The notes under the pieces were generated by a model. The model saw nothing but the letters and a program-made list of their open reading frames with translations. It made no database searches and had not been told where the DNA came from. The translations under genes and the position numbers were made by a program. Below, piece by piece: positions 29,658-59,648 of a stretch of 64,000 nt of DNA. Location of the stretch: positions 135,630-199,629 of the forward strand of contig OX638335.1 in NCBI GenBank assembly GCA_951812785.1. Direction: 5' to 3'. Within the stretch, counting starts at the first letter, position 1. Each line of letters starts with the position of its first letter. Origin of the DNA: an uncultured Gammaproteobacteria bacterium. GTDB lineage: Bacteria; Pseudomonadota; Gammaproteobacteria; UBA4575.

Positions 29658-29661
29658 GATC

Positions 29662-30527: not shown

Positions 30528-30576
30528 GGGACGTTGAGCGATTAGCCAAGCTCCGTAACGCCGGGAGAGCGTTCTA

Positions 30577-41977: not shown

Positions 41978-42565
41978 GTGAGAGGTTTCTTGTGTGTGCT
42001 GTGGTTGTTAGTATCCGTAGCACACCCCAGCGTGGAAACAGAACCCGTCACGGTTGAGGTAACGCGAGATACCAGCAAGGTTTATCATTTCAGCATGAGG
42101 TTTGTTGCAAATGCAGCACCCCATCAAGTATTTACTATTATCACTAACTATAATCATCTTTCTGAATTGAACCCGTTGATTAAATCTAGTCGACTATTGC
42201 CATCAAGTTCTCCTACGAATTTCTCTGAAAACTCCCCTAGGATTGATCGTGTTGAGTTGATCACAGAAGGCTGTATGTTATTTTTTTGTAAAAAAGTCAT
42301 TCGTGTAGAAGATGTTAGTGTTAATGAAAATTTAGATATTAAGACAGTGGTAGTGCCTTCGATGAGTGACTTTAAGTCAGGGAATACCAGGTGGACATTC
42401 ACGCCTGACGGAGATAAAACGATAGTTCGTTATACTGCGACTATGCAACCAAGTTTTTGGCTGCCGCCATTTGTAGGTCCATATGCGCTTAAAAAGCAGA
42501 TTCGATCTCAGCTTCAATACACAGCGCATAAAATTAATTTTTTACTCGCTTCTGATGCACACTAA
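41978..42565 (+). CDS. Secreted SRPBCC/START-like hypothetical protein
   Basis: Signal peptide. ~170 aa. Family assignment is tentative. Confidence 0.35.
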   Translation: MRGFLCVLWLLVSVAHPSVETEPVTVEVTRDTSKVYHFSMRFVANAAPHQVFTIITNYNHLSELNPLIKSSRLLPSSSPTNFSENSPRIDRVELITEGCMLFFCKKVIRVEDVSVNENLDIKTVVVPSMSDFKSGNTRWTFTPDGDKTIVRYTATMQPSFWLPPFVGPYALKKQIRSQLQYTAHKINFLLASDAH

Positions 42566-43604
42566 TCTATCATTCGCTGAACGCGTTTTAGCGTGGGCTG
42601 CCGATTATGGGCGTAAGCAATTACCTTGGCAGCAACAACGAACTGCTTATCGCATATGGGTATCGGAAATCATGTTGCAACAGACACAAGTCGATACAGT
42701 TATTCCATACTTTGAAAAGTTTATGCAAGCATTTCCCACAATGAGTGCACTTGCTAAATCAAAGCAAGATGAGGTTTTACATTATTGGTCAGGGTTGGGT
42801 TATTACGCGCGTGCACGTAATTTGCATAAAGCGGCACAATTAATTTGTGATAATTATCAAGGCAAATTTCCAACAAATATTGATGACGTGATAGCACTTC
42901 CAGGCATTGGCCGTTCTACGGCAGGCGCTATTTTGTCGCTTAGCTTTAATCAAAAACATACGATTCTTGATGGCAATGTAAAGAGAGTGTTAGCAAGGCA
43001 TCAGGCAATCGAAGGTTGGCCTGGGAGTACAAAAAATGAAAAATTATTGTGGGTTGTCGCCAGGCAGCAAACTCCTGAAACTAACAATGCACGATACACA
43101 CAAGCAATGATGGATTTAGGAGCAATTTTATGCACAAGATCTAAACCCAACTGTAAGCTATGCCCTGTAAGTAATGATTGCCTCGCGTTAGAGAAGGGCA
43201 GGCAAAATGAATTGCCACATTCAAAGCCTAAAAAGCAAATTCCTATACGTAAAACGGTCATGTTGGCAGTGACCAGTGAGCAGGCTGGATTGTTAATGCA
43301 GCGCCGACCTAATCAAGGAATATGGGGAGGGTTATGGAGTTTTCCTGAGTTTGATAGTGAGGAGAGTGCACTAGACTGGTGTTCAAGAACACTTCAGCAA
43401 GCGCCAAGAAATTATCAGACATTGGATCAAGTTAACCACACTTTCAGTCATTTTCGATTACAAATAACACCTATTTCGATCAAAATTAACACCCCTATAC
43501 ACTGGGTAATGGAAGCAGATGAATGGGTCTGGTATAAACACGGCTCTTCACAAGTGGGTTTGGCTGCACCTGTGAATCAATTGATTAAACAACTAGCAAT
43601 TTAA
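42555..43604 (+). CDS. mutY: Adenine DNA glycosylase
   Basis: HhH-GPD 'LPGIGRSTAGAI', FeS cluster 'C..x6..C..C..x5..C' ('CTRSKPNCKLCPVSNDC'), NUDIX-like C-terminus. Confidence 0.9.
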   Translation: MHTNLSFAERVLAWAADYGRKQLPWQQQRTAYRIWVSEIMLQQTQVDTVIPYFEKFMQAFPTMSALAKSKQDEVLHYWSGLGYYARARNLHKAAQLICDNYQGKFPTNIDDVIALPGIGRSTAGAILSLSFNQKHTILDGNVKRVLARHQAIEGWPGSTKNEKLLWVVARQQTPETNNARYTQAMMDLGAILCTRSKPNCKLCPVSNDCLALEKGRQNELPHSKPKKQIPIRKTVMLAVTSEQAGLLMQRRPNQGIWGGLWSFPEFDSEESALDWCSRTLQQAPRNYQTLDQVNHTFSHFRLQITPISIKINTPIHWVMEADEWVWYKHGSSQVGLAAPVNQLIKQLAI

Positions 43605-43613
43605 GGAGTCACC

Positions 43614-43886
43614 GTGGCTAGAATGGTGCAATGTGTTAAGACAGGTAAAGAAGGTGAAGGACTAGATTTTCCGCCTTATCCTGGAGATTTAGGCAAACGA
43701 ATCTACGAAAATATTTCTAAAGAAGCGTGGGAGTCCTGGGTGGGGCATCAAACGATGCTTATCAATGAATACCGATTAACGCCAGTCGATCCTAAAAATC
43801 GTAAATTTCTTGAAGAAGAAATGGAGAAATTTTTATTTGGTGAAGGGTCAGACATTCCCAAAGAATTTGTCGCTTCTAAAGAGTAA
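43614..43886 (+). CDS. yggX: Fe(2+)-trafficking protein YggX
   Basis: '[42 protein letters not shown]'. The mutY-yggX pairing is conserved. Confidence 0.9.
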
Positions 43887-44048: not shown

Positions 44049-44124
<76 letters not shown>

Positions 44125-44312
44125 TTAGCTTTTTATCAGTAAAAAAATCTTCTAACACCTTGAAAGGCAAACTAGTTTTAGCGGTTCGATAACCCTCTCC
44201 ACGCACATAGGTAAGACGGTCAGCAAAAGCAAGTTTTAGTACTGCTCTTTTGTCTTCTCATCGCTCAGAAGCCCAGAGTTTATAGGGGTTTGAGAGAAAT
44301 CCCAAAGCGGTT

Positions 44313-44900
44313 ATGAATAATGATAAGAAACCTCCAGCGCGGCCAACAGTAGCGCACAAAATAGAAGAAACGCAGAATAATTATTACGTTCAGGCGCTAA
44401 TGAGCGAGAGTGACGATGCCGAGCAAGGTGGCCTCAATATTAACGCCAGCGGTCGTAATAATTCTAGCTACACCAATTCATCCAAAAACAAAAAAGCTAG
44501 CGATCAAGTTTTCGATATCTTGATGCAGAATGATTTGGCCTTACAGCTTGCAGCCTCGAATGAACGATTGGCTAATTTAGAAGAAAAATATGGTGAAGAC
44601 TTTGATTTGAATATTCTCGCCGAGTTTGCGAATGATGAAGACTACAAACGCATCGCATCCATTCAAGATATCAATGCACGGCGCGATGCTGTTGCTGGGT
44701 TTGTAAAAGAAGGTGTCGAGAATGGCACCATTGACCCAGATAAATTACAGACTATTGATCCTGATGGTTGGTCAAAAGAGCGCACCGAAAACATGGATAT
44801 TAGGAAAAATTATGAGCATCAATATGAGCTCAAACAAGATCTAGAAATTGATAGCCCTAGCGCTAGCGTTAATCTTTCGGCGCCAGCACCATCGTTTTAA
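44313..44900 (+). CDS. Hypothetical acidic protein (195 aa)
   Basis: ORF only; no recognisable domain. Confidence 0.3.
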   Translation: MNNDKKPPARPTVAHKIEETQNNYYVQALMSESDDAEQGGLNINASGRNNSSYTNSSKNKKASDQVFDILMQNDLALQLAASNERLANLEEKYGEDFDLNILAEFANDEDYKRIASIQDINARRDAVAGFVKEGVENGTIDPDKLQTIDPDGWSKERTENMDIRKNYEHQYELKQDLEIDSPSASVNLSAPAPSF

Positions 44901-45462
44901 ATCACTATTTTTTCCATGTCGCTTTCTCAGCCATTGCAAACTCTTTCCATTTATTGAAGCCTTAATTTGAACATTAATAAAAAAAATCAACTTGGCTTCG
45001 TAAACTAGGTATCTTGCTTTTTCCTGTGCTTCACCAGGCTGTAAAGAATGGTCGTGAAGTAAAGTGCCACTGGCATAAAAGCTCATTGCGCTACCCGGTT
45101 TTTGATGTTGCTCTATAAAAACTTTAGCTTTTAAGCCATTATTTTTGTAGAGTTCGATGAACCATTGCTCAAGTTGGTCTATCGGTACATCTTTAAGACC
45201 TGTGCCTACATAAAGAGCAATACCAACATCACTTCTTTGGTCGCAAGAATATTCATAGGCTAAAAATGATGTTTCAGTATCAAGCAGGGCTTTACGAATT
45301 TCTTCTTTATGTTCATCCGTGCAGTTATCGTTAAACATGCCTGCATCAAGACCGTAATAAAGGGTTGGCTCATCCTTATCCAAGGTTTGTGCTGTACCCA
45401 TAAAAATACTTGCGCTAAGTCCAAGAATCAGGCACTTAAAAAAAGAACCTTTTTGCTAATGT
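44841..45462 (-). CDS. Secreted hypothetical protein; the signal peptide is restored only if the T7 run at ~45440 is read as T8
   Basis: 'MDISKKVLF' is in one frame and 'FKCLILGLSASIFMGTAQTL...' in the next. The junction is exactly at 'ttttttt'. Confidence 0.35.
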
Positions 45463-45639
45463 CCATTTGAAATAATTTAGCAAAAATCCATTACTAATAA
45501 GTACTTGATATCTAAAGAAAAGGAATTTGGATGAATAGAAAAATGTGCGCACCCTTAAAAGGTTCGTTTTTGTCTATGATATGGAAACTTCCTTTGTGCT
45601 ATTCAGTACAAAACACTTTCAAACAGGAGATTAATCCTG

Positions 45640-46146
45640 ATGCGATATGGTTATGTGCGAACGTCGACTAATAAGCAGCTAACTGACAGGCAAGTGAATG
45701 AGCTTGAAGGTGAATGCGATGAGGTCGTGATTGAAGATGGTGTGTCAGCGTGAAAGAAAAACCGTCCCAAATTCCAAACTTTGCTTTTAAGTTTAAAATC
45801 CGGCGATGAATTTGTTGTCATTGCGTATGACCGCACATTTCGATCAGTAATTGAAGGTTTGCATACTGTAGATGAATTAACAGCACGAGGCGTGATATTA
45901 AAATCACTAACGCAAAAACTTGATGTTACGACACCTGACGGGCGTTTGTTTTTTACTCTGACGATTGCCATTGGTGAATGGGAAGTGAATAATCTGAGTG
46001 CGCGAACAGTCAGCGGCCTAAAGGCCGCTATTCAGCGCGGTGAAAAATTAGGTCGGCCTCGTAATGGTGAAGACCTGCGCCAGCGCAAGAAATACCGTGA
46101 CACTGAATTGACGGTACAAAAAGAGACTATCCGAACAAATGCTTAA
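45640..46146 (+). pseudogene. Small serine recombinase (resolvase/invertase family) with in-frame TGA at ~45748
   Basis: RBS 'aggaga'. 'MRYGYVRTSTNKQ' (catalytic Ser), '...EDGVSA*KKNRPKFQTLL...DEFVVIAYDR...' collinear with Hin/resolvase. The stop replaces a conserved basic residue. Confidence 0.65.
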
Positions 46147-46619
46147 ACACTTAAAGATAACCCTACACGCAGATGCGCAGACATCTGTATTAACCCAGTG
46201 TAGGAATGGATGGAATTAGAAATCACTATGGGGCTGGCATGAGTGATACAAATGACATCAAGAGTCTCAATGATATTCCGATAGAAATCTTGAGAAAAGA
46301 AGGTTGGGCGCTTGATCATGTTTTTGTAGGCGAGCTTGAAAATACGATGCCTTCTTAATGCCTTGAGGTAATAACCAAACCAGCGCATATCAAAATCATC
46401 CGTGAATACATCATCAATTTCAGGAAGAGGGTAAGGCTGCCCTAGCTCATCGACAATTTCACCGTCATAGTCTCGAATGGCATCAGCTATTGCATCTAAC
46501 CAATCTCTTCGGCGAATCTCCATATTGCGCACCGCAATCCAAAGTCGATGGTAGTAGCTAGTCGATCTCAATTCTTCCTCGGTTGCCACCCTTATTATAT
46601 TTCTTTCCTTAGCCAACAT
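46143..46619 (-). CDS. Hypothetical protein (158 aa), convergent with the recombinase
   Basis: ORF only. Confidence 0.25.
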   Translation of the reverse strand: MLAKERNIIRVATEEELRSTSYYHRLWIAVRNMEIRRRDWLDAIADAIRDYDGEIVDELGQPYPLPEIDDVFTDDFDMRWFGYYLKALRRHRIFKLAYKNMIKRPTFFSQDFYRNIIETLDVICITHASPIVISNSIHSYTGLIQMSAHLRVGLSLSV

Positions 46620-46841
46620 AATGCCTCCCTAGCAATTAAATTAAAGTCAAAGTAATAAATAATCTTAACAGCGGTTATGTTAAAACTTGGGAAAAATAGA
46701 ATGAGGAATTGGGGAAGCCTTGGCTGTATTACGTTTTCATAATGTAATACATATGCGCACGTCAATACGATAGTATGCTCTTGTGCTAAAAATAAGAAAT
46801 TTTGTATGCGCTATGTTTTTTGTCTTCTAATTAGATCTGTT

Positions 46842-48940
46842 TTATTTAATCGGAATCTCAACTGATAATTCATCACCAATTTTTGTCGCACCCTTTTTAG
46901 CAATTATTTTAAATTTAATTTTTGTGTTTGATTCAAGATTCCGTAAAGTAAACTTTACAGACGAATTATCCTTTACTGTCACAATTGATCCGGGCTTTAA
47001 TACGATTGAAGTATTAGAAATTTTATCTTTAGCTGAATCCATGTCGGCACCATCAAGAGTAACTTCTACATAATCTGCTAACTTAATCTTATTTACTTTC
47101 TCAAAATTAAAGTGAAGAGTGATTGAACCAGCACCCTTGTCCTGTGTTACTTTGCTTGCGCCAGAATTAACTTTTACTAAATGTTTTAAAGGTGTAACCA
47201 ATCTTTGGTAGAAAATATCTTCATATATTTGATCATTATTTAATGACAAACTACTGCCTATAACTTTATTGGAGTCATCTAAATAAATATCATTGACCCC
47301 TAGAGCTGCCAACGAAGGGAAATCAAGTGCTAATGAGGTATTACTATTACTAGGCACTAAAGTTAATGGTCTCGTAATATCTTTCAATTGAATTTTTAGC
47401 TCTGCTGTTATTTTCGAAGGGTTTAAATTTTTCCCATTTTGTAAAATGATACTAGATTTTGTCTTTGTGTTATCATCAAGCACAACTAATTGACTAGATG
47501 GTGGTAATTGCTGCTTATTAATATTCAATTCAAACTTGGTCGCTGAATATGGAAATTTTTGTGTCATTGATACCAGGTCTAGCCAAATGTTTTTATGATA
47601 AACCCCACAGGGCAAAGTCCTGCCGCTACAGGGACTAACCTTTGTATTTTCAGCAATTTTATTCAAGATACGCTCAAAACCATCATAGTTATTCCCATAT
47701 ATTTTACCTAACAGATAATGAACCTCTGCGCTTTTTGGTTTTGTTTCTATATTCAAATTGCTCATCAATATGCTTGTTGCTTCAGCAATAGCATTTGCCT
47801 CAGATTTTAATAATGGTAGTTCTATACCTGTTTCCGCGTTTCGAGCCGACCATCTTTTTGTAGCCATTCGTCATCAGCAAATAAAAGTAATGTGACATAA
47901 TGAGTTCTTGGAATTGCAGAATAAGCCGATGATGCCTGAGTTGCTGCTCCAAATCGGGCTGAAATTGTATTATCTGTAATTTGTCCGACAGTGAATATAC
48001 TATTTTTATCATTAGCTAGTATGCTATCAATTTCCTGCGCACGGCGTCCTAAGCCAAACCCGGTTCCTACTCCAGTTCTTACCGCTGACAAAGCTACAGA
48101 CAGTGCGCGTATCGATTCTGCAACACGATTGCTATTAGAGTTTTCTAGGTTATCGGTCACAAAAATTGGCAGGACAATAACTCTATCTGGGACTGACTTT
48201 TCAAATGATTCGTCATCAACTGCCGATAACAATGAAATAATACTTTTTGATTCGTTTGGTTCATTTTGCGCAAAAAAACCTAACACTGAATATATGTCGT
48301 AAGGAACATTTCTAGCGTAAGGTAAAACTTGGAGTTGGAGTCTTACTAGAAAAGCTGTTTTGTTTTTATAAGTTGCCACATCCTCGATATACCTATTAAG
48401 AATTTGAACTTCTTGGTAAAGAGATGTTGCAGCGGTATATTGTAATATTGGATCATTTGCAATTTCCTTTGGTCTTTCAACGTTAGAAACTGGGGCAGAA
48501 TTATTTTCCAAGATCTTAGTTTGTTCAGGTACTTCGACTGATCCTTTCTCTTTGCTATCTAGAACAGTTGTGGTGGTTGTCGTTGTTGGCTCTTTCCCCG
48601 TAGTTTCCTGTGTTATTGCTTCTATTGATTCTGATGATGTCTTTTTTGATCCTGCCAAACCTATAGATACAGAGCCAACTAATGCATCTAAAATTCGTTG
48701 TTCGGCAATACTAGTTGTAGGTAATGACTTAGCAAGTGCTTGTTCTGCTGTAATAGTAAAATTTGGTGTTAAAGGCTCAATATACTTTTCTCAAGGCGCT
48801 ACTTGAACAATAGACAAATTTACAGATGCCAATTGGCCTTGGCTCTCAACTGTTACAGACTTGGTTTTATTTGTATTCGTCGCGCACCCAATACACACGA
48901 ACAGCCCAAAGCCGACACACACTATTGTTTTTATGATCAT
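46842..48940 (-). pseudogene. Large lipoprotein (~700 aa if contiguous) with in-frame TGA after the signal peptide and an A5-run frameshift
   Basis: 'MIIKTIVCVGFGLFVCIGCATN...SIVQVAP' then TGA in the same frame (rc of 48791-48793), then '..EKYIEPLTPNF...TTTTTTT...' (47822-48658 frame). Adding one A at the A5 run ~47855 would fuse it to ORF 46842-47867. Confidence 0.45.
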
Positions 48941-49023
48941 AACTAGTGATTATCAATCTTATTATCTTTATTTATCATTAACTATATGAAGTCATTATGG
49001 TATAATTACATATTACAACCACT

Positions 49024-50198
49024 TTGGATATAATTTGTTATATGGCAGGTTTTACTAACCATCGTTGGTCTCAAATCTTTGATAAATTAAACAGCAATCC
49101 TAGTAAATTTGGATTACCAGTCCGTAGAAATAAGTCTATTGATCTAGGATCATTTAATGCGCTCAAGCTTGGAGATGTTTCAAATAGCTCAAAAAGATGG
49201 GATTTCCTTACGAGAATAGCTTCAGGATTTGACTTGTTGGCAATTCAAGAGGTTATGGATGATCTTTCTGGTATTCGCCGTCTCCATAAATCTTTAGGTT
49301 CGGGATATAAACTGATTATTTCGGATACCACCGGCGCAGCACCGGGTTCGAGAGGCTTAAAAGAACGTTTGGCTTTTCTTTATCGAACATCTCGGATTGA
49401 GCTAAAAGAACTTGTCTCTGATATCACTTACGATCGCTCAATTATTATTTCTAAGCTCAGAGAAGATATAGATATTTGGAATTCTTTTTTCCAACACATT
49501 GATGATACAAATACTGACAGGGTGAAAAACAAAAGTCACTTGCAGATTTCTCGCTCCCAGAATTTTTAACTTTTATTCGCACTCCTTACTGCGCTTCATT
49601 TTCTATAAAACCAAAAAATAATGCTAAACCGATAGAGTTTCTTGGTGTCACTGCACATACTTTACATGGCAAAAGCAAGAGCGAGCGCACACGTGAATTT
49701 TTTGCATTATTAGAATGGCTAGTACTTAGGGCTAAGTCAGCTAACACAATGTATTTCAAAAATATGATATTGATGGGTGACCCAAATATACGGCTATCTG
49801 ACATTACCCAAACCCTTAATAACTTAAATAGCTCTTTACTCTCGGGTAGAGATGATAGCCAAGTTAATTTCCCATTTTTACATGTTCACCCAGATCAAAG
49901 ATCGCTTTTTGGTACAAATGCCCGAAGCGATGAAACATTTGACCATATTGCTTTCTTTATTGACCGGAATGGACGTCATCTACCATCAACAGGTGACAAT
50001 CGACAAGCAGGTCAACAGGGTCTAAATGACTATGATTTTGGTGTTTTCAATTTTGTTGAACTCATTTCTCAGGCTATTCATAACCTAAGCTTTCACGAGC
50101 TTACAAAGGCTCAGCAAAAGAGTCTTGTCAAAAATACAAAGGCCGACATATCGGACCACTTACCTATATGGGTAAGACTTCCTATTTCTGGGGCCTAA
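49024..50198 (+). CDS. Endonuclease/exonuclease/phosphatase (EEP) family protein, frameshifted at an A-run ~49530
   Basis: N-terminal 'FDLLAIQEV' and C-terminal 'SDHLPIWVRL' EEP motifs. The middle ('NAKPIEFLGVTAHTLHGK') is open in the second frame from 49515. Confidence 0.55.
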
Positions 50199-50329
50199 CC
50201 ACTCCTGCCAATATCTTTGGTGCAATACTAAATGCAGTTGCAATACAATGAAATTCACTTCACGCTTCACGCAAGCTGTGCTTTGTAATACCACTCAAAA
50301 ATTTAAACAATTTTTGGTGATTACAAAGC

Positions 50330-50650
50330 GCTTGGCAAGCAAAACCCGCTGCGCGTTTTGCGTTGCATCATTTCCGGCTTATGGCTTAGTTCGGCATCAA
50401 GCCTTCTTGCGCCAGCTATATCAAATTCCACGTTTACCCAAGTAGTTTGGATAAACATGCAATTCGATATAGAAAAAACTCTCTCGGCGAGGCCAAGGGT
50501 TCCATGCGACAGTGCGCCCTACGGGCTTTGCTTTGCATGGATACCATGCTCTTAATTTTGGATCGCTTCCCGATGGGTCAAGGGGCCGAGTTCTCGCCAA
50601 AGGCTGCGAGCCGCACCAACCCCTTGACCCATCTTGTAGCAAGGAATTTG
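50330..50650. other. GC-rich (~52%), highly self-complementary element within an AT-rich island; candidate structured RNA or relic
   Basis: Perfect 14-bp inverted repeat 'gatgggtcaagggg...ccccttgacccatc' (50581-50632) enclosing two mini-hairpins. Further stems: 'ccatgc...gcatgg' and 'gcaaaac...gttttgc'. No convincing coding frame. Confidence 0.3.
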
Positions 50651-50780
50651 GTTAAATCCCAGATTATTAACCTGAGAATTCTCGAAAATCGTCGATAAAC
50701 CTATGAATTTTATCTATTTTGCGCTACCTTAGCACTCTGTAACATTTATTGTTATCAGCATACAAAGAGTCAAAACTGTT

Positions 50781-51461
50781 ATGGCAAATTTGCTTAAAAC
50801 ATCTACATTTCTTGGCACGCTCAACGAATTTGAAGAAAAACACGCACCCAAAGAGCTTTACTATGAGGGCGATGCAGATCTTTTACATGAAGGCATAAGA
50901 ATTTCTATAGTCGGTTCTAGAAAAGCATCTGACGAAGGCATTCGCCGAGCACGTAGTTTCGCGACTGCATGTGTAAATCATGATATTACAATTGTGAGTG
51001 GTCTCGCCGATGGTATCGACTCTATTGCTCATGAGACTGCGATTGCACAAAGTGGCAAAACGATAGCAGTTTTAGGTACTCCTTTAGACAAAGCTTACCC
51101 GGCTAAAAATAAAGATTTATTAGAGCGCATAAAGAAAGAGCATCTAGCAATTTCACAGTTTCCTATTGGCTACCCCTTCAAAAAAGAAAACTTCCCAAGA
51201 AGAAATAGGACAATGGCCTTAATTTCAGACGCAACGGTGATAATCGAGGCAGGTGAAAAAAGCGGTACTCGTCACCAAGGCTGGGAAGCACTTCGTTTAG
51301 GCCGTCTTGTATTTATCATGAAAAATATAGTAGATGATGAAAACTTAACATGGCCGAAAGAAATGATTGAATATGGCGCACAGGTATTAAGCCGGGATGA
51401 TATGCCTGATGTTTTTTACGACATTCCAAGTTTTACAGCTGGGGCTTCGGTTGCTTTCTGA
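50781..51461 (+). CDS. shosA: DprA/Smf-like SLOG-domain protein (ShosA-like)
   Basis: DprA Rossmann-domain motifs 'IVGSRKAS', 'IVSGLADGIDSIAHETA', 'TIAVLGTPLDKAYP', 'FPRRNRTMALISDATVIIEAGEKSGT'. It lacks the SAM and winged-helix domains of true DprA. Confidence 0.65.
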   Translation: MANLLKTSTFLGTLNEFEEKHAPKELYYEGDADLLHEGIRISIVGSRKASDEGIRRARSFATACVNHDITIVSGLADGIDSIAHETAIAQSGKTIAVLGTPLDKAYPAKNKDLLERIKKEHLAISQFPIGYPFKKENFPRRNRTMALISDATVIIEAGEKSGTRHQGWEALRLGRLVFIMKNIVDDENLTWPKEMIEYGAQVLSRDDMPDVFYDIPSFTAGASVAF

Positions 51462-52098
51462 AATTGAATACGCAACATTTTGTAATTACTCGCCTAGAGG
51501 TACATCAGATTTATCTATTCACTCTAAAAAAGTTTGTGGGGCATTCAAAAACGGCAACATTGACACTTTAAATTCCACACTACCATACTTTAGTCAGCCA
51601 TCTGCTACTATTCTGTCTGCCTTTCTTAATCCACAAATAACATTAGTGCCAGTTCCCAGAAGTGCTCCATTAACAGATGGTGCCTTATGGCCATCTTTAG
51701 TAATAGCAGAATTCTTACAACGAAACGGATATGGACACGAGGTTTTACTTTGTATTAAAAGAAAAACTGCTGTTAGAAAGTCTTCTAGTTCTGCAAGCGG
51801 CAACAGGCCAGAAGTAAGCGAACATTATGAAAGTCTTGAAATAGAGCAACAACTCTTAGTGCCTGATGAGATTACTCTGATTGATGATGTTTTAACTCAA
51901 GGCAGAACAACTATTGCTTGCGCCTTAAGACTTGAAGAAGTTTTTCCAATGACAAAAATTCGAATTTTTGCAATGATGAGAACTCAAGGCTTTAAAGATG
52001 ATATTGACGAAATGGTGGAACCTATTTGCAATATTATAAATTATTATGAACCAAGCGGAAAACATATAGAAAAGACGATTAGCCTCATTGCTTTTTAG
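51397..52098 (+). CDS. shosT: Phosphoribosyltransferase-domain protein (ComF-like PRTase; ShosT-like)
   Basis: PRPP-binding motif 'ITLIDDVLTQGRTTIACA'. N-terminal Cys/His-containing segment. Overlaps the upstream gene by ~50-65 nt. Confidence 0.6.
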   Translation: MICLMFFTTFQVLQLGLRLLSEIEYATFCNYSPRGTSDLSIHSKKVCGAFKNGNIDTLNSTLPYFSQPSATILSAFLNPQITLVPVPRSAPLTDGALWPSLVIAEFLQRNGYGHEVLLCIKRKTAVRKSSSSASGNRPEVSEHYESLEIEQQLLVPDEITLIDDVLTQGRTTIACALRLEEVFPMTKIRIFAMMRTQGFKDDIDEMVEPICNIINYYEPSGKHIEKTISLIAF

Positions 52099-53335
52099 AA
52101 AAATTAGAGAACATAAAAAACATGCTCTTTTGACTATTTAGCTTCAACGTATCGCTTGGTTTAATTGTGTTAGCCTGTCTACGCTTTCCACCTGCTTCTG
52201 TAATAACCTCCATATCTGGGTTCTCAATAATCATTTCATGAATATCATCGCTATGAGCAGGTGTTTTACTATATGCTGTCGCATAAAAATCTTGGACTAA
52301 CAAAGCATCCCCAGATTCCGCAATAAACCTTGGAATATCATCGTATAAGTTTTCTTTAGCAGATTGTCGTGAATCATCATCAAATAAATACAACATGCCT
52401 TCCTCTTTGGGATCGTAAGAAAGCATATGCAAACCTGCGCGACCAAAGTGAGCCTGCGGCAAAGCATTTCTATGAAGAATATCGTTATAAGCTTGTCTTG
52501 CACGATATCTATTTGCAAAATGCATAAACCAGTATCGCCAACCCTTAGGATTCTTAATTGAGAATGGGCTTACATAAGACGCGCAATCTTCTAAATGCAT
52601 ATAAACAATTTTTTCAGCTTCCCCCATCCATTGCTTCTTTTCTAAGAGATTGGCATCAGATAACAAAGCATCAATTTTGGTTTTTACTTCTGGTTCTAGA
52701 GGCACACCAGATGCTTCTTTCTTTTGTGATAGAAATGTAAGCATGCTGCTAATCATGAACGTAAGCAGTATTTCTGCTGAATCCCATGACTTCATAATAT
52801 CTTTTATAATGTCAGTAGAAACAAGTGAATACCCGCATTGATCTAAATTAAAAAGCACATTGCTACATCTAGCAGAAAGCAATTTCTGTTTTACTTGAGG
52901 GTAGAGCAGTTCAAATTTTGAGTTAAAAAACTCTAATTCAACATATAGATTTTCGTTCTCATCTTTGATCGCTGCTAGGAAGGGGGCAGTGTTAGCGCGA
53001 AGCAGTTCTATAGCTTGTTTATTCTCGTCATTTAATATTAGCAAACATTCAATTTGAATAGGACGAATGCCTTGAGATTGCCGATGTAGGTTTATCTCTT
53101 TTGTTGTATTTTTTAAAACATCTAAAAATATAAGTGGTGAACCAAAACTGTTGCACTTATACAATCCCGCGCCACAAAACCCATCTACAATTGCCAATCT
53201 AAATTTTTCTCTCTTTGGCAGTTGGCATCTAATAATTAAGTATTCTCTAAAATATTGCGCAAGAATTTTATGCTTTTTCTTTGTATGATCTTTGAGTTCG
53301 GGACCATGTTCCCAATCATAATTTTTTGTCTCCAT
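52085..53335 (-). CDS. tcmP: Three-Cys-motif partner protein (TcmP-like)
   Basis: 416 aa. Immediately downstream of and co-directional with the three-Cys-motif gene. Family recalled from memory, not confirmed by search. Confidence 0.5.
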   Translation of the reverse strand: METKNYDWEHGPELKDHTKKKHKILAQYFREYLIIRCQLPKREKFRLAIVDGFCGAGLYKCNSFGSPLIFLDVLKNTTKEINLHRQSQGIRPIQIECLLILNDENKQAIELLRANTAPFLAAIKDENENLYVELEFFNSKFELLYPQVKQKLLSARCSNVLFNLDQCGYSLVSTDIIKDIMKSWDSAEILLTFMISSMLTFLSQKKEASGVPLEPEVKTKIDALLSDANLLEKKQWMGEAEKIVYMHLEDCASYVSPFSIKNPKGWRYWFMHFANRYRARQAYNDILHRNALPQAHFGRAGLHMLSYDPKEEGMLYLFDDDSRQSAKENLYDDIPRFIAESGDALLVQDFYATAYSKTPAHSDDIHEMIIENPDMEVITEAGGKRRQANTIKPSDTLKLNSQKSMFFMFSNFSKKQ

Positions 53336-53352
53336 GCTTTGTAGTCCCCCAA

Positions 53353-54168
53353 CTATGCAACACGATTTTCAACTATAGGCATTTCATCCCAAGTTCTCCC
53401 TCTATATTCACGTCCATTCGCTTTTTTAGAACGCTTTTGATTATCTTTGCCCCACGCGCCCCATTGTTTGAAGAAAAAAGCTGTTTTATATTTTAAACAT
53501 TGTCTATGAATTTGATCGATCCATTCTTCTTTTATTGGCCTTGCCTTATATCCACTCTCACCCCCAACAATTGCCCAGTGAATTTTATTAAGATTTACGG
53601 CACTAACTTTATCTATTAGTGGCTCAAAGGAAATAAAACGAATTGCAGCTGGTGTTTTACGTAAACAGTTAATTCTATTCGCAGCATCAGCATTTTCGAC
53701 ACTAGTGCCTAACCATACATTGGGCAGCACCAATTTAATCTTATTTGAGACCAGTTCTTTCATGCGCTCAGGGCGTTTAGTTAGAATCTGGTAGTTATGC
53801 TGCGGTGTTTCTTGCATGACACGCCACACTGATATCACAAACTCATCACTAACTTTCTCATGAAACAGATCACTCATTGAATTCACAAATATTTTGCGAG
53901 GCTTTTTCCACTTATACGGAATCAGTAGTGACGCTTCATCTTCTCTGACAACACCATTCCAAGTGACGTTTCCCCCTTTTTTTTGTGTAAGCCCTTTATA
54001 TTTATTAACCCCCATTGCTTCTAATCTTCGCGCCATCTGCATGGCATAGCAGTGCTTACAACCAGCGCTGGCTAGAGAACAACCTGCTACAGGATTCCAA
54101 GTCGCATCTGTCCATTCAATTTGTGTTTCTGCCATTTTATTCTCAAACGAGCCTACAATTAGACGCAA
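53353..54168 (-). CDS. Three-Cys-motif protein, phage Gp37/Gp68 family (DUF5131)
   Basis: 'WNPVAGCSLASAGCKHCYA' Cys triad near the N-terminus; '...WAIVGGESG...' Gp37/Gp68-like core. Confidence 0.6.
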   Translation of the reverse strand: MRLIVGSFENKMAETQIEWTDATWNPVAGCSLASAGCKHCYAMQMARRLEAMGVNKYKGLTQKKGGNVTWNGVVREDEASLLIPYKWKKPRKIFVNSMSDLFHEKVSDEFVISVWRVMQETPQHNYQILTKRPERMKELVSNKIKLVLPNVWLGTSVENADAANRINCLRKTPAAIRFISFEPLIDKVSAVNLNKIHWAIVGGESGYKARPIKEEWIDQIHRQCLKYKTAFFFKQWGAWGKDNQKRSKKANGREYRGRTWDEMPIVENRVA

Positions 54169-54365
54169 TTATTCCACCATAAAGACAAATTAGATACCCT
54201 ATTTAAAGTGATTTATTAATATTAACAACAGCTTTAAAGTTAGCCCAAATCAATATCTCTTGACCGATTTTTAGGTTTAGCCTTAATTCTCTCCTTGAAT
54301 TCTGCAATTCGTCTATCGCCGATCTTTATCTCTTTATACTGGTCAATATCAGAAGACATTCTTAA

Positions 54366-54479
54366 TTCATTGCTCTTCTTGAATTTCTGCAATCGTTCAT
54401 TGCGAAGATCTCGTCTTTGAGTAGGTGCAGTGCTAGATTCTTAGCACCACCGCGCTGATTGCCCTGCAAAATCATTTAT
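54366..54479 (-). pseudogene. MobA-type (ColE1 MbeA-like) relaxase, N-terminal 37-aa stub
   Basis: 'MILQGNQRGGAKNLALHLLKDE' parallels the MbeA N-terminus 'MIVKFHARGKGGGSGPVDYLLGKD'. It terminates after 37 codons. Confidence 0.35.
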
Positions 54480-54892
54480 CATCACTCACTTTCAAGCCAA
54501 GAGCCATCAGTAAGGTATCTCGCATAATCAATATGGTTTCATGCGCTTCTTGTAGTTGCCGCTCTGCATCTTGGGAGACATCTAATGTTCCCATGTTCAC
54601 TGATTTTGCGAGTTGATTTAGATTTGAAGAAAGTCGGGATTGCCCCAGCGCAGCTAGCAACGTTGCATACTGCTTTTGTTCAATGTGGGGTTTTCTGTGT
54701 ATACGACGCTTTTGTTCCTTATCTTTGAGTAAGCATTCCCTTATACTATGTACCAAGTGGTTTGTTACCCGCCAATTGTTCTAAATAAGCGCGTTCCTCT
54801 TCGGTAAAGCGAAGACAGAAAGGAGCTGCCCGTTTCTTACTCTTATATGTAGAGTTAGATGCTGAGCGAAATGTGGCATAAACCGCGCTCAT
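54472..54892 (-). pseudogene. mobC: MobC-family mobilisation protein, frameshifted
   Basis: N-terminal 'LRFTEEERAYLEQLAGNKPLG' (one frame) and C-terminal 'HSIRECLL...LSSNLNQLAKSVN' (another frame); both are MobC hallmarks. Confidence 0.55.
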
Positions 54893-54959
54893 GGTTGCGG
54901 TTCCTGTGGGTCTTGGAAGAAAGGCACATGGTTCTCAAGATAATCATTAGCAAAATGCG

Positions 54960-55215
54960 CATAACGTAATACCATCTCCATACAGCCTCATCCACCAAGT
55001 TCCATTAATGCTTGTAAACTAGTCCCGTTTTGTATGTGCTAAGAAGCCCAAGTATGTCTAAGATCGTGCCAACAAATCTGTAATGCCAGCACGTTCACAT
55101 GCTTTCTTAAATGCTTTAGTTGGTGTTCTTAAAACAGGTTTTCCTTTATAACAAAAGACATACTCTTCATTTACATTTAAACATTCACTGAGAACATTCA
55201 TTGCCCTCCAATCTT
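54960..55215 (-). pseudogene. Tyrosine recombinase, C-terminal fragment with stops and frameshift
   Basis: 'FKKACERAGITD' / 'HDLRHTWAS' / 'LQALMELGG..VLRYAHF' (box II and C-terminus), spread over two frames with stop codons. Confidence 0.5.
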
Positions 55216-55373
55216 GCTCTCTAATTCAATAAGTACTTACCACATATAAAGCTCTATTTAGATCATTAGACTTATGTCTAATAGATGCGATTTTGGTCAT
55301 ATGTAGGCTATAAACCATATCGATTTGCCATTATTTCTATATACATTGTTGCAATTATGTATGGAGGTATGAA

Positions 55374-55937
55374 ATGAAGGAAAATAAATCGAATATCCCA
55401 GAGTGGGTCAAATGGATTCATCTTGGTTTAGCATTTTTTGGGATTACAGCGTATCTAACCGGTGAACTAGCGGAACATTCAAATAGCTATGGTTATTTGC
55501 TACACGCTTATCTAGGTCTGACTGTCTTATTCTTTATGCTAAGTAGATCCTTGTATGGAATCTGGGGCTCATATGCTTATAGATTTTCAAACTGGTTTCC
55601 CTACAAAAAGTCATATTTGAATACTATAAAAGAGGATCTAAATATCCTTACAAGGTTTAAACTACCTGAACGTCAAGATCATCGTGGGCTAGCGGGCCTG
55701 GTCCAAGCATTTGGGTTAGTGATTTTTAGTTGGATGTCGATTACCGGAACGATTATGTTTGCAATAAACGTATCTGATAATTCAATTATTGCAGAGCTGC
55801 ATGAAGTTGGAGAAGGGTTGATTCCGTTGTTTTTAGCACTTCATTTAGGAGCAGTTGCTTTGTATGTAATTTCTGGCCAAAATTTATTGACTAGAATAAT
55901 GCCTAGTCGTGATAAAGAAAAAGGAAATATTACTTGA
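55374..55937 (+). CDS. Cytochrome b561-like membrane protein
   Basis: Four predicted TM helices with conserved His residues (H-x13-H pattern). Tentative. Confidence 0.45.
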   Translation: MKENKSNIPEWVKWIHLGLAFFGITAYLTGELAEHSNSYGYLLHAYLGLTVLFFMLSRSLYGIWGSYAYRFSNWFPYKKSYLNTIKEDLNILTRFKLPERQDHRGLAGLVQAFGLVIFSWMSITGTIMFAINVSDNSIIAELHEVGEGLIPLFLALHLGAVALYVISGQNLLTRIMPSRDKEKGNIT

Positions 55938-56407
55938 ACTATTTTCAGCAATTAAAAAAATACATTCCAGTTGTTGTGCTGGGATTGGCGAGTATCTTCT
56001 TTTTGTACGATATTATTACGGATATATTAAAGAACGAAGAAAGTTTCCCACATCTAATCATTGAAGGATTCATATTTCTAGCAACTACTATCATTCTTAC
56101 ACAAGAAGTTTTGCGGGTAATACTACTGAGAAAAGATTTGAGACTAGAACAAGGTAAAGTAGTACGGCTCTCAGGAGAGCTTAATAGTGTAATCAAAAAA
56201 GATTTTGAAGAATGGAAACTTACCGAAAGTGAAAAGGAAGTGGCAATTTTATTGATAAAAGGATTATCGATGAATGAAATTGGTGAATTGCGGGGTGTAA
56301 AAGAAAAGTCAGTTCGTCAGCAAGCAACAAGCATCTATGCAAAATCTAAATGCCCAAACAGACACGAATTAGCAGCAAAGTTTATTGAAGATTTGTTGAA
56401 CATTTGA
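55934..56407 (+). CDS. Membrane-anchored LuxR-type HTH regulator
   Basis: Two N-terminal TM segments plus C-terminal 'LTESEKEVAILLIKGLSMNEIGELRGVKEKSVRQQATSIYAKS'. It overlaps the b561-like gene by 4 nt. Confidence 0.6.
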   Translation: MNYFQQLKKYIPVVVLGLASIFFLYDIITDILKNEESFPHLIIEGFIFLATTIILTQEVLRVILLRKDLRLEQGKVVRLSGELNSVIKKDFEEWKLTESEKEVAILLIKGLSMNEIGELRGVKEKSVRQQATSIYAKSKCPNRHELAAKFIEDLLNI

Positions 56408-56636
56408 TGTTGATGAGTTGTTTTAGCCGGGAGCAGAAAATTAATGATTAAGATTGGTGGATGTAACGATGGAAATGAAAAGGAAGCCATACAATATTTA
56501 AATAAGTCTTTATCTGGTAGTATATTTTGGTAGCCGAGAAGAGGACAGGGGATCTTCATCGCTAACCTTGATAGTTAATTATTAATAAGAAATTTGATGC
56601 GTCAATCATACTAAAGTATTGGCTTTATAAAATTCG

Positions 56637-56783
56637 CTAATTTATGTGATTCATAGACATCCTTTCAATGAGCTGGATGACTATGGACAAATGAATCAAA
56701 TAAGGTTGAATGCGGTGGCAAGACAATTAAACGAACGTCCGAGATAAACTTTGGACTTTGAAATGCAGGAAGAACGATTTAAT
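56637..56783 (+). pseudogene. IS30-family transposase, C-terminal fragment with nonsense codon
   Basis: 'ELDDYGQMNQIRLNAVARQLNERPR*TLDFEMQEERFN' is the IS30 C-terminal signature (..LNNRPRKTL.F.TP.E.F). Confidence 0.5.
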
Positions 56784-57932
56784 CTGTAGTAGCTCAGACC
56801 TGATCGTACCGTTACCGGTTATTGATAGGAGTCTGTCAGTTTAGATGTGAGCTAAATTCTTTTCAGCCCAAATCAATTTACCATCCATTAACCTGTCCAT
56901 GGGTATTCTACCACCGCCCATGTTGCCTTGATGAGTGCGTTCATTGTGATCAGTTTCTATCCAGTTGTCTTGATCTTTTGGTCAATCCTCCCTGGTTGAG
57001 TACCGTTTTTTCCTGAAGGTAATTTGATAAAACTCATTCAGAGATGCCATGGGTTTGCGGTGATCAATGTCGTTAATGGCCAGGTATCACGGATCGTCAT
57101 GATGCTCCACGCGCCCACAAGATTCTGTGCCTCTGTCGGTTAAACTACGTAGCATCGGCAAGGCATGCTTTTCAAAAAACGGTAGCACCTCATCAAAGAG
57201 TAGGTCTGCGGCGGTAATCGGCGTCTTAGTCGTGTAGAGTGCCGCAAAGGCGATCTTGCTGTAGGTGTCTACGAACGTTTGCGGGTATAGCCGACCAACA
57301 CCTTTGAGGTGGCCTAAGTCACCAGGATGTGCCGTGTCAATCTCACCACAGGCCTCGTCATCCTGTTTCTCAAGGGCGGCGATCTGTGCATCGCTTAAGA
57401 TAATGCCCTCCTTGGCAATTTCTTCTTCGAGTGCTTTGAGTCGTTTCTTGAAGTGCTCTCGATGATGGCGCAGCCAAACGGAACGCACACCGCTACCAGC
57501 GATCAACACACCTCTCTTACGGAGTTCATTGCTGCTTCGATGTTGCCCAACCGCGGGCTGTTCAATCGCTGACGTAACCCCTGCATGTGCTGTGGGTTCA
57601 TCCACACGGTTTTTAACATCGGCTGTTCTACGACTCTTGTCAATCCGTGAGTCAATGCCACCTTCTTCAACCCGCTGTTGATAACGATAGAATGTGTCTC
57701 GCGACACCCCCATGACTTGACAGGCGCTAGATACGTTGCCCAGTTCTTCTGCTAAGTTAAGCAAGCCCGCCTTGTGTTTAAGGATTGGATTGTTAGTATG
57801 AAGCATGAGAGTTACCTGCCTTTTTGATTTAAAGATTTCAACACCTTTATCAAAACGGGTAACTCTCGCTTTTGCAACCCTTGTGGACTGCTAATTGTCA
57901 GATCGGGTCTGAACTATTACAGTTAATCAATG
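56784..57932 (-). mobile_element. IS481-family insertion sequence, copy 2 (degenerate; internal deletions relative to copy 1)
   Basis: Same ends as copy 1, flanked by 5-bp direct repeat TTAAT. The transposase ORF 57087-57806 (239 aa) lacks segments present in copy 1, and its C-terminus is out of frame. Confidence 0.8.
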
Positions 57933-58310
57933 TGTTGCATCGACCAGTTGAAGTCGCAATTGTGTGTGTTTTGTACTTCTAGCTTTTGTTTGTGACTTTT
58001 CCAATCGCGCAGCTGATTACCGATGTTGCTTTGGTCTTGAGATTGTTTGATCCTTTTTTTCCTGTCTCTGGATAACCTAAGTTAGTGAGTTTTTCACTAA
58101 TAAGATTATGGATCTCACTGTCACTGCTAGATTACTTGTGACAGTGACTATTTTCTTTTTAATATTGACTTGTATGTCTTCAACTCCCTTTATTTCTTTT
58201 AGTTTTTTTGGATAGTATTTTCACATCCGCCGCATCGTATATTTCCAACTTGGAAAGTATGTTTCATTTTTTCGTCTCCTAATCTATTTGGTGTTTTAGG
58301 TGAAAGTTAA

Positions 58311-59624: not shown

Positions 59625-59648
59625 GATAAATTCCTTATGTATAATTTG

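Follow-up and report, generated by a model that had tools for sequence, protein, structure and literature searches.

Results

A mobile-element-derived block at the 3' end of tRNA-Phe

The window, a stretch of 64,000 nucleotides from an uncultured gammaproteobacterium, carries a tRNA-Phe gene followed by the features listed below, some of them recognized by comparison with L082 (ENA ERZ25767047 ctg39019), an intact element at tRNA-Met.

44049-44124, +: tRNA-Phe(GAA) (ARAGORN; Rfam tRNA 72 bits)
44060-44308, -: large serine recombinase remnant, last ~60 codons with one in-frame stop (homology to L082)
44313-44900, +: ORF of 195 aa, putative gene (no family match)
44841-45401, -: ORF of 186 aa (no family match)
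45640-46146, +: small serine recombinase (resolvase) pseudogene (Pfam Resolvase 6e-30 on X-patched translation)
46143-46619, -: ORF of 158 aa (no family match)
46842-48658, -: split gene, ~620 aa in all, now in two overlapping ORFs (278 and 341 aa; homologue matches)
49024-50198, +: possible endonuclease/exonuclease/phosphatase (EEP)-like gene, split (frame reading; weak Pfam Exo_endo_phos2, E 0.039)
50240-50700, no strand assigned: highly structured non-coding region with multiple hairpins (MFE, shuffles, homology)
50781-51461, +: ShosA-like DprA-fold protein, 226 aa, Rossmann domain only, predicted antitoxin (PADLOC ShosA 4.1e-74)
51451-52098, +: ShosT-like PRTase, ~215 aa if started at TTG 51451, predicted toxin (PADLOC ShosT 7.3e-24)
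52085-53335, -: TcmP (three-Cys-motif partner protein), 416 aa, methyltransferase fold and wHTH (NCBIfam TIGR04474 190 bits, cut-off 53)
53353-54135, -: DUF5131 (phage Gp37/Gp68 family) radical-SAM-like protein, 260 aa from ATG 54135 (Pfam DUF5131 1.5e-102)
54362-54475, -: relaxase (MobA) stub, 37 aa (homology to the N-terminus of the L082 relaxase)
54472-54892, -: MobC/NikA-like relaxosome accessory gene, frameshifted (on joined frames, Pfam NikA-like 4.5e-4, MobC 1.2e-3)
54889-55222, -: tyrosine recombinase C-terminal fragment, ~110 codons (Pfam Phage_integrase 1e-12)
55374-56407, +: cytochrome b561-like (187 aa) and LuxR-type regulator (157 aa) genes, intact (Pfam Ni_hydr_CYTB 6e-17, GerE 1e-5)
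56658-56789, +: IS30-type transposase C-terminal remnant with a K-to-stop change, cut by the IS481 insertion (translation, motif reading only)
56782-57926, -: IS481-family element, decayed by deletions and nonsense codons (Pfam HTH_29 6e-16, rve weak)

Alignment of the window with L002, L003, L005 and L012 shows identity through the CCACCA of tRNA-Phe and divergence beyond it, and the synteny with L001/L002, at 70-88% amino-acid identity, reaches tRNA-Phe and then ends. The left island junction is the CCA end of the tRNA (44124), as proposed in an earlier sequence-only reading that placed the start of the island exactly at the tRNA 3' end and suggested comparing tRNA-Phe-adjacent regions of relatives. 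This comparison defines the left edge, and the block is absent after the tRNA-Phe of L002, where 10 kb of 3' sequence gave zero matches to the window up to position 64000; the comparators comprise one usable genome, which is not of the same species. Integrase-like sequences lie directly 3' of tRNA-Phe in L002, L022 and L059. The name pheV that had been given to the site is an E. coli name; the locus order here is mutY-yggX-tRNA-Phe, in a gammaproteobacterium of ~41% GC.

The right end had been placed at 56783, which is merely the IS30/IS481 junction; mobile DNA extends to at least 57926, the end of the decayed IS481 copy. A search of the window found no attR or second island boundary, and the block may be a single element or an accreted mosaic. 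These observations support the conclusion that foreign DNA derived from mobile elements has been inserted at the tRNA-Phe 3' end.

Decay of the mobility genes

The frame of the large serine recombinase reads antisense into tRNA-Phe. Over 44060-44308 it is 77% identical in nucleotides to the 3' end of the intact 519-aa recombinase gene of L082, which abuts tRNA-Met in full length, and the two translations align (e.g. ...EDKRAVLKLAFADRLTYVRGEGYRTAKT...); the gene abutting tRNA-Phe here is mostly deleted. It contains gcggttcgat (44181-44190), a 10-nt match that had been read as part of a degenerate copy of the tRNA 3' end (44181-44200). The string is there, but it falls in codons of the recombinase remnant (GYRTAK) and is conserved as such, so that its reading as an att repeat is rejected.

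The resolvase pseudogene does carry the in-frame TGA attributed to it, at 45751, and its C-terminal HTH is apparently absent. The tyrosine recombinase survives, as claimed, only as a C-terminal fragment, with damage worse than had been described: one frameshift and two nonsense codons (W to stop). Its stop overlaps the mobC start, and its last 30 codons are also kept upstream of mobC in L082. The frameshift reported in MobC lies near 54746-54750, and this gene is 64% identical in amino acids to the NikA-like gene of L082. The MobA stub matches just the N-terminus of the 427-aa L082 relaxase, the homology stopping ~24 codons in, near 54403. The nonsense codon of the IS30 remnant is present, the IS30 assignment being by motif reading only, and a Pfam search of these 48 aa gave no match. 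A second decayed IS481 copy, 93% identical, lies at 566-1752, and each copy has its own deletions. The view that every mobility function is broken thus holds for all the genes it named, each a pseudogene or a stub, but it had missed the large recombinase remnant and the decayed IS481 copy. These lesions support the conclusion that the mobility machinery of the island is dead.

Split genes, other reading frames and a structured element

The three small ORFs (44313-44900, 44841-45401 and 46143-46619) gave zero matches in Pfam, NCBIfam, PADLOC and PHROGs. In the split ~620-aa gene, the 341-aa ORF aligns to residues ~340-700 of ~700-aa proteins and the 278-aa ORF to residues 129-326 of P0362 (41% identity, E 3e-51); at their junction, 47822-47869, ~10 codons appear to have been deleted and the frame shifted. 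The EEP-like gene is frameshifted at a T5 run near 49560, a homopolymer in which an assembly error could be responsible. The cytochrome b561-like and LuxR-type genes overlap by 4 nt. As this pair and the three small ORFs are intact, intactness is not specific to the defence-like modules.

The region 50240-50700 has an MFE of -154 kcal/mol (z = -6.3 against shuffles) and shares a ~31-nt block and a hairpin with L082, L085 and L086; an Rfam search of this region gave no match. By sequence comparison, this region represents a diverged copy of a multi-hairpin element, conserved and covarying, from related mobile elements.

Two full-length gene pairs

The PADLOC profile search that had been suggested matches both cargo pairs, with the ShosA, ShosT and PDC-M30/M41 models. 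The ShosA-like protein matches Pfam DNA_processg_A (1.5e-56), is under the NCBIfam dprA equivalog cut-off (166 vs 191 bits) and has the modal length of its family (7274 homologues, mostly 226 aa). The homologues of the ShosT-like PRTase have 208-209 aa. This protein keeps 19/19 invariant residues, the DDV..G PRPP loop included, and its AF2 model (pLDDT 92) has ComF as the best Foldseek match (7p0h, 1e-4), with ShosT 8zvc at 1.4e-4. Its last ~9 residues deviate from the family consensus, and its 3' end and that of TcmP share 14 nt. Mobile elements in L081 and L091 carry the same pair in the A-then-T order, the genes overlapping by 11 nt, and the L091 copy adjoins a T4SS and ParDE. In terms of domain content, the DprA-like/PRTase pair reads as a full-length short form of ShosTA, devoid of the PPase and SAM domains.

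TcmP matches PDC-M30A (5e-25), its length lies within that of its homologues (410-419 aa), and its AF2 model (pLDDT 81) gives class-I SAM methyltransferase matches. The DUF5131 protein covers positions 1-243 of the 243-position Pfam model and matches PDC-M30B/M41B (~1e-100) and PHROG 2045 (5.5e-93). The two proteins are 84% (DUF5131) and 73% (TcmP) identical to their L082 orthologues, and the genes form a recurrent two-gene cassette in varied contexts. A published listing of radical-SAM subgroups includes DUF5131 (PMC9477430), and in S. meliloti DUF5131/TcmP lies near the Hna defence gene, SMa2243 beside SMa2245 (PMC12445080). By its model matches, the pair is the PADLOC candidate PDC-M30. Both pairs had been described as full-length and overlapping: the first point stands for both, and ShosA and ShosT overlap by 11 nt with the TTG start used in L081 and L091, but DUF5131 and TcmP are 17 nt apart and do not overlap.

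Discussion

The stretch from 44125 to at least 57926 is probably one or more eroded integrative mobilisable elements that entered at the tRNA-Phe 3' end and in which two modules still look functional. By homology with L082, the original backbone would have had a large serine recombinase gene directly against the tRNA, as well as a resolvase; its far end would have held a tyrosine-integrase/MobC/relaxase operon, and the structured non-coding element and the DUF5131-TcmP cargo would have completed it. In the present sequence, only the last ~60 codons of the recombinase gene are left, and a deletion that reaches the DUF5131 promoter region has removed the relaxase beyond ~24-37 codons. Point and frameshift lesions affect the resolvase, the integrase and MobC, and also two IS elements and two cargo genes. 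The element is now immobile, the short ShosTA-type and DUF5131/TcmP pairs remaining functional-looking. For the ShosT-like PRTase, the prediction is PRPP binding and a poisoning of nucleotide metabolism, and for the ShosA-like protein an indirect counteraction via ssDNA/RecA-linked repair. If the short form works as E. coli ShosTA does, phage infection would block antitoxin replenishment and lead to cell death or arrest. DUF5131/TcmP would be a nucleic-acid-modifying conflict module made of a radical-SAM-like enzyme and a methyltransferase-fold/wHTH DNA-binding partner, with a role that could be defence or anti-restriction. Such modules would persist as useful, addictive or late-arrived.

The sequence-only reading took the asymmetry between broken mobility genes and intact cargo as a sign of selection for the cargo. 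The intactness fits, but the asymmetry is weaker than claimed because at least two non-mobility genes (~620-aa and EEP-like) are also broken, and selection, toxin-antitoxin addiction and later arrival fit the intact cargo equally. It is very improbable that assembly errors in a long-read metagenome-assembled genome account for many of the pseudogenes and that the island is less decayed than it appears. The window comes from a contig of 2.16 Mb, the related records are of long-read MAGs and the EEP-like frameshift is within a T5 run, but the lesions are mostly nonsense substitutions, multi-codon deletions and truncations of hundreds of codons, found in the recombinase remnant, the relaxase, the integrase, the resolvase (TGA) and both IS481 copies, and the core genes of the window can be aligned with those of relatives over their full length. 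Assembly errors do not typically take the form of nonsense codons and large deletions. It is rather doubtful that both pairs are recent, separate insertions into an already dead island, which would make their integrity uninformative on selection. Both are self-contained two-gene cassettes found elsewhere in unrelated contexts, and the ShosT 3' end, non-consensus and overlapping that of TcmP, resembles a fresh junction. Moreover, in L082 the structured element is directly downstream of TcmP, and here the 1.3-kb ShosAT pair lies between them; this arrangement suggests that ShosAT was inserted there later and may be younger than the backbone. However, no insertion scars, repeats or recombinase accompany ShosAT, GC content is uninformative (0.36-0.41 vs 0.41 for the host), and DUF5131-TcmP belongs to the L082-type backbone and is therefore probably as old as its decayed neighbours.

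Retention of the ShosAT-like pair by post-segregational addiction, loss of the antitoxin killing the cell, rather than by host benefit, is unlikely. In ShosTA, a type IV toxin-antitoxin system, the PRTase is the toxin (PMC11961720, PMC12961424), and homologous short pairs adjoin other TA modules and lie on conjugative or mobilisable elements, but addiction guards the antitoxin and not the toxin: inactivation of the toxin first would be neutral, yet the toxin keeps all its invariant residues. Addiction also leaves the intact DUF5131-TcmP pair unexplained. It is rather unlikely that this second pair serves the mobile element itself, by anti-defence (anti-restriction) or DNA modification, and is not a host defence. 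In L082 the pair is ~370 nt from ardA, divergent, inside a mobilisable element, DUF5131 is a phage family (PHROG 2045, Pfam 'Gp37/Gp68') and TcmP combines a methyltransferase fold with a wHTH. Against this, PADLOC classes the pair among its defence candidates (PDC-M30, PDC-M41), the pair also occurs outside mobile-element backbones, beside defence-like helicases (PMC12445080), and a dead element would gain nothing from anti-restriction, yet the pair is intact here.

The eroded mobilisable element that we favour resembles L082 in its insertion exactly at a tRNA 3' end with a recombinase gene reading into the tRNA, in the tyrosine-integrase remnant and mobC-relaxase arrangement, in the presence of a resolvase, and in the DUF5131-TcmP cargo, the structured element and the flanking IS481 copies. 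It differs in its target (tRNA-Phe, not tRNA-Met), in the death of all its mobility genes, in missing the T4CP, ArdA and HigBA/PemK-Phd modules, and in its extra cargo (ShosAT, the split 620-aa gene, the EEP-like gene and cytochrome b561/LuxR). DUF5131/TcmP shows no structural difference from PDC-M30/PDC-M41, both genes being adjacent, on the same strand, full-length and high-scoring, the label 'defence' of these candidates reflecting genomic association only.

ShosTA of E. coli (Millman 2022) is a type IV toxin-antitoxin anti-phage system, the mechanism of which has been addressed by Pu 2025 (PMC11961720) and Yang 2026 (PMC12961424). The pair described here likewise consists of adjacent PRTase-fold and DprA-fold proteins with a conserved PRPP-binding loop, on mobile elements and in defence islands. 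In contrast with E. coli, ShosT is here PRTase-only, without the 164-aa N-terminal pyrophosphatase domain, ShosA has neither the SAM domain nor the unstable C-terminal tail and scores nearer S. pneumoniae DprA than E. coli ShosA, and the DprA-like gene comes first and overlaps the next. Because these parts are absent and no sequence similarity of the short ShosT-like protein to the solved E. coli ShosT is detectable, the degron-based trigger model of E. coli ShosTA may not be transferable to the short form. The pairing of a DprA Rossmann fold with a ComF-type PRTase fold also recalls DprA and ComFC of natural transformation, but the DprA-like protein lacks the SAM and C-terminal domains and is under the dprA cut-off, and the pair lies in a mobile island and is patchy across phyla on mobile elements. 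In conclusion, the most unusual item of the island is the multi-hairpin element at 50240-50700, absent from Rfam, and the locus as a whole is an ordinary decayed defence island, which follows a common pattern and represents no new kind of system.

Left junction and extent of the island

In this work we examined the DNA that follows the tRNA-Phe gene, in a window of ~41% GC, a composition that sets it apart from Escherichia coli. The genes at the left junction are:

42483–43604: mutY, upstream of tRNA-Phe
43614–43886: yggX, upstream of tRNA-Phe
44049–44124: tRNA-Phe(GAA), single copy (ARAGORN and Rfam)

Among the species-representative genomes scanned, the closest relatives by YggX are two gammaproteobacterial MAGs, L001 and L002 (88–89% identity), and core genes of the window are collinear with theirs by tblastx as far as the tRNA. 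The yggX–tRNA-Phe arrangement is found in L002 and also in L003, L005, L010, L012, L016 and L019. Nucleotide alignment shows full identity through ...GGCCACCA and immediate divergence after it, which places the left junction exactly at the tRNA 3′ end, where the sequence-only reading had set it. Unrelated genes follow tRNA-Phe in L002, and tblastx found no match between the 10 kb 3′ of the tRNA in this genome and the window up to 64000. The island is therefore not at the same locus in L002, in a comparison with a single genome from another species, as L001 stops short of the tRNA. The tRNA-Phe gene is directly followed by integrase-like sequences in L002, L022 and L059, and this site is a hotspot in the lineage.

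Mobile DNA reaches at least 57926. Mismatch searches and repeat finding within the window revealed no attR: the last 17–25 nt of the tRNA do not recur anywhere downstream at up to three mismatches, and the sole repeat-finding match (44172–44190, 19 nt, 79%) is coding sequence. Segment GC is 0.35–0.49 in the island, compared with 0.41 in the flanking core genes. Just past an IS481 copy, at 58311–61076, are genes for a multicopper oxidase and for TolC-like efflux across the outer membrane; they are possible metal-resistance cargo, and may or may not belong to the island. Elsewhere in the window, a 7.6-kb stretch (28192–35806) has no counterpart at this position in the otherwise collinear L001 and L002, and may have been inserted into the core region as well.

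Decay of the mobility genes

The features of the island to which we refer are:

45640–46146: small serine recombinase with a TGA at 45751 (Resolvase, 6e-30)
46842–48658: gene of ~620 aa, split into two overlapping ORFs
49024–50198: weakly EEP-like gene, with a frameshift at a T5 run near 49560
50240–50700: structured element
50781–51461 (+): DprA-like ShosA
51451–52098 (+): PRTase ShosT
52085–53335 (−): TcmP
53353–54135 (−): DUF5131 (Gp37-Gp68) three-Cys protein
54362–54475: MobA relaxase, a 37-aa stub
54472–54892: MobC/NikA-like gene, frameshifted
54889–55222: C-terminal fragment of a tyrosine recombinase (Phage_integrase, 1e-12)
56658–56789: IS30 C-terminus remnant with a nonsense codon, identified by motif reading only
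56782–57926: decayed IS481-family element

All mobility functions had been described as broken, and each lesion was recovered by six-frame reading and Pfam searches on stop-patched translations. The tyrosine recombinase fragment additionally carries one frameshift and two W-to-stop codons. The integrase, the relaxase and the accessory protein of the IME are thus all pseudogenes or stubs, and the element does not qualify as a functional IME. The split gene at 46842–48658, the halves of which match residues 129–326 and ~340–670 of ~700-aa proteins, the EEP-like gene and the IS481 element, which interrupts the IS30 remnant, had all been missed. ORFs 44313–44900, 44841–45401 and 46143–46619 have no match in PHROGs, Pfam, NCBIfam or PADLOC.

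A second IS481 copy, at 566–1752, is 93% identical to the first, with separate deletions and stops in each. The two copies are in the same orientation, ~55 kb apart, and have TCTGTAGTAGCTCAGACC and GGTCTGAACTATTACAGA as terminal inverted repeats. Sub-threshold matches to Rfam psRNA2 lie beside IS481 copies (57809–58024 in the window; 307–411 and 21038–21207 in L082, the intact comparator described below); they are weak, ~24–27 bits compared with a gathering score of 65, and are probably IS-end sequence, not an sRNA.

Relationship to an intact element

The closest TcmP homologue with a known context lies in L082 (ENA ERZ25767047, ctg39019; a 3.3-Mb contig), within an intact mobilisable element composed, in order, of genes for a NikA-like protein, a 427-aa relaxase, HigBA, a resolvase, PemK/Phd, ArdA, DUF5131, TcmP, a T4 coupling protein and a 519-aa large serine recombinase. 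The gene for this last protein stops within a tRNA-Met gene, ~44 nt inside and antisense to it, so that the recombinase C-terminus would change on excision. Features common to the window and this element, and arranged in matching order, are the end of the recombinase at the tRNA, DUF5131 (84% amino acid identity), TcmP (73%), the NikA-like gene (64%), ~24 codons at the start of the relaxase, a tyrosine integrase tail (in each case with a stop that overlaps the start of mobC), a hairpin block that is conserved, and flanking IS481 copies. At its distal end the L082 element has a further CCCACCA joined to a ~230-nt 3′ fragment of the recombinase gene (the two places in L082 are 1760–1990 and 20724–20988), which implies tandem accretion of such elements at tRNA genes, there tRNA-Met.

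The window looks like a relative that has undergone two large deletions, with point lesions elsewhere. One deletion would have removed nearly the whole large serine recombinase gene, the other would have extended from relaxase codon ~24–37 to just upstream of DUF5131, and point lesions would have struck the remainder of the island backbone. We also considered that an older tyrosine-integrase island had been displaced by a newer one, and dropped this idea because the integrase stop overlaps the mobC start; together with the presence of the same integrase tail before mobC in L082, this overlap indicates that integrase, MobC and relaxase form one operon.

The region 44056–44312 is 77% identical to the 3′ end of the L082 large serine recombinase gene, and its minus-strand translation matches the recombinase C-terminus residue for residue, with one in-frame stop (...SER*EDKRAVLKLAFADRLTYVRGEGYRTAKT...). 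A degenerate copy of the tRNA 3′ end (‘gcggttcgat’) had been noted here. These nucleotides are the antisense of Y-R-T-A codons and are kept in both L082 copies, where the adjoining tRNA is tRNA-Met, with a different T-arm. Their conservation beside another tRNA shows that they are codons left over from the recombinase of the island itself, and not an att repeat. A recombinase gene does therefore lie beside the tRNA, as a 3′ remnant only.

The ShosA/ShosT-like pair

Both cargo pairs had been reported as full-length, which is borne out by family-typical lengths and by Pfam, PADLOC and NCBIfam matches; PADLOC across the island retrieved ShosA/ShosT and PDC-M30/M41. PADLOC models assign the DprA-like protein to ShosA (PDLC03961, 4.1e-74; Pfam DNA_processg_A, 1.5e-56) and the ORF after it to ShosT (PDLC03962, 7.3e-24). 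The 7274 ShosA-like homologues, found in Alpha- and Gammaproteobacteria and Nitrospira, are 65–75% identical and overwhelmingly of exactly 226 aa, and by this measure the predicted window protein is full-length for its family. Canonical DprA, which acts in natural transformation, is defined by an NCBIfam equivalog cut-off and a full architecture that the window protein does not reach (TIGR00732, 166.3 bits for a cut-off of 191.15; NF008007, 131 bits for a cut-off of 495); the protein scores nearer to Streptococcus pneumoniae DprA than to the solved Escherichia coli ShosA.

The homologues of the PRTase partner are 208–209 aa long. In L081 and L091 its start precedes the end of the DprA-like gene by 11 nt, and a TTG start at 51451 gives the window ShosT the same geometry. 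The operon-style overlap ascribed to both pairs is thus present in ShosA/ShosT, and not in DUF5131/TcmP, which are separated by a 17-nt gap (19 nt in L082). The window PRTase keeps 19/19 invariant residues, including the DDV..G PRPP loop (D145, D146, V147 and G151), and only its last ~9 residues are off consensus; at this end the gene overlaps that of TcmP, which is convergent with it, by 14 nt. Sequence searches found no solved relative of this protein, the solved ShosT included; its AlphaFold (AF2) model (pLDDT 92) has a PRTase fold, and its best PDB matches by Foldseek are Helicobacter pylori ComF and ShosT-PRPP (8zvc), at ~1e-4.

E. coli ShosT is a 424-aa protein with an N-terminal PPase and a PRTase domain, and in E. 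coli ShosA a SAM domain at the N-terminus is followed by DprA and an unstable C-terminal tail (PMC11961720). In contrast with these multi-domain proteins, the window proteins are single-domain, of 215 and 226 aa, and the PADLOC ShosA match begins at profile position 95. On predicted domain content, the window pair is a minimal single-domain form of ShosTA. As a clean natural example, it could show which parts of the E. coli system are dispensable among PPase coupling, the SAM domain and the C-terminal degron. Elsewhere the pair is also found in mobile contexts: Tn/resolvases beside QatABCD, a T4SS with ParDE, and a relaxase with NikA. In Roseibium polysiphoniae (L090, 8001–9960) a 226-aa ShosA-like gene is followed by ~1.3 kb without a called gene, and this genome may lack the PRTase partner or have it in decayed form.

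The DUF5131/TcmP pair and the structured element

The DUF5131 protein matches PF07505 over its whole length (positions 1–243/243, 342.7 bits, 1.5e-102) and PADLOC PDC-M30B (2e-98). TcmP matches TIGR04474 (189.7 bits for a cut-off of 53) and PDC-M30A (5e-25), and PADLOC labels the pair as candidates PDC-M30/M41. TcmP homologues are 410–419 aa long; in its structural model (pLDDT 81) TcmP adopts a class-I SAM-methyltransferase fold, with DGFCGAG as methyltransferase motif I, and Pfam identifies a C-terminal wHTH. Among radical-SAM enzymes, DUF5131 is listed as a subgroup (PMC9477430). The same two genes are found together in settings that have nothing else in common: next to ArdA in an IME, with a PLD-helicase-S24 gene alongside, flanked by housekeeping genes, and close to a fragment of an integrase. 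In Sinorhizobium meliloti, TcmP is close to the Hna defence gene, SMa2243 lying beside SMa2245 (PMC12445080). A literature search found no functional or experimental study of DUF5131/TcmP. These observations add to the evidence that the pair is self-contained and widely mobile as a unit of two genes, and make it worth testing for function.

The 460 nt that separate the EEP-like gene from ShosA fold far better than shuffled sequences (z = −6.3), and in L082 the gap that follows TcmP (z = −5.5) has a hairpin block in common with them. A first metagenome pattern scan gave no match; further pattern scans found homologues in L085, L086 and L087, the last a high-GC contig. The copies are:

Window: 50240–50700
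L082: 11285–11552 (−)
L085: 1250–1520
L086: 2787–3075
L087: 2030–2270 and 5627–5713

The element is a multi-hairpin structure of ~260 nt with compensatory base changes and variable loop insertions, present in related mobile elements. It covaries across distant taxa: RNAalifold on four copies predicted 39 pairs, and compensatory changes occur in 10 of these. A covariance model built from the conserved 3′ core (R1) finds the untrained second copy in L087 (E 7e-11) and misses the window copy, which is divergent or decayed in this core. Its neighbours vary; in L085 they are an SMC-like ATPase and a pair resembling TacAT. Rfam scans of the window, L082, L085, L086 and L087 returned no family, only spurious miRNA-like hairpin matches, so that this conserved structured element of mobilisable islands lies outside Rfam. 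An integron attC, a retron msr/msd and known ncRNAs were rejected, as there is no IntI or reverse transcriptase gene nearby and no Rfam family. An ssDNA origin or promoter is one possibility for the element, an ncRNA another. We regard as tentative, and rather unlikely, the idea that the radical-SAM-like DUF5131 and TcmP, with its methyltransferase fold and wHTH, constitute a new nucleic-acid-modification conflict system, beside an undescribed element that may mark a cargo-insertion site or serve a single-strand function in these mobilisable elements that target tRNA genes.

Does the cargo reflect selection?

The island is real and dead, with two pairs intact. The contrast between broken mobility genes and intact cargo had been read as selection to keep the cargo. 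The intactness of the pairs stands; by itself it is no proof of selection, because genes unrelated to mobility have decayed too, because cytochrome b561/LuxR genes and three small ORFs are also intact, and because ShosTA-type modules are toxin–antitoxin pairs that resist loss. The nearest homologues of the island proteins are 60–84% identical in protein, so that synonymous sites are saturated for dN/dS. TcmP and the structured element are adjacent in L082 and ShosAT appears between them in the window, which suggests a later insertion of the ShosAT pair.

Two leads are of modest interest: the minimal form of ShosTA, and the candidate DUF5131–TcmP pair with its neighbouring structured element. 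Mobile elements commonly land at tRNA genes and lose their mobility genes, leaving defence or toxin–antitoxin cargo behind, and the island described here is an ordinary, well-documented object of this kind: a decayed tRNA-associated mobilisable island with defence or toxin–antitoxin cargo.
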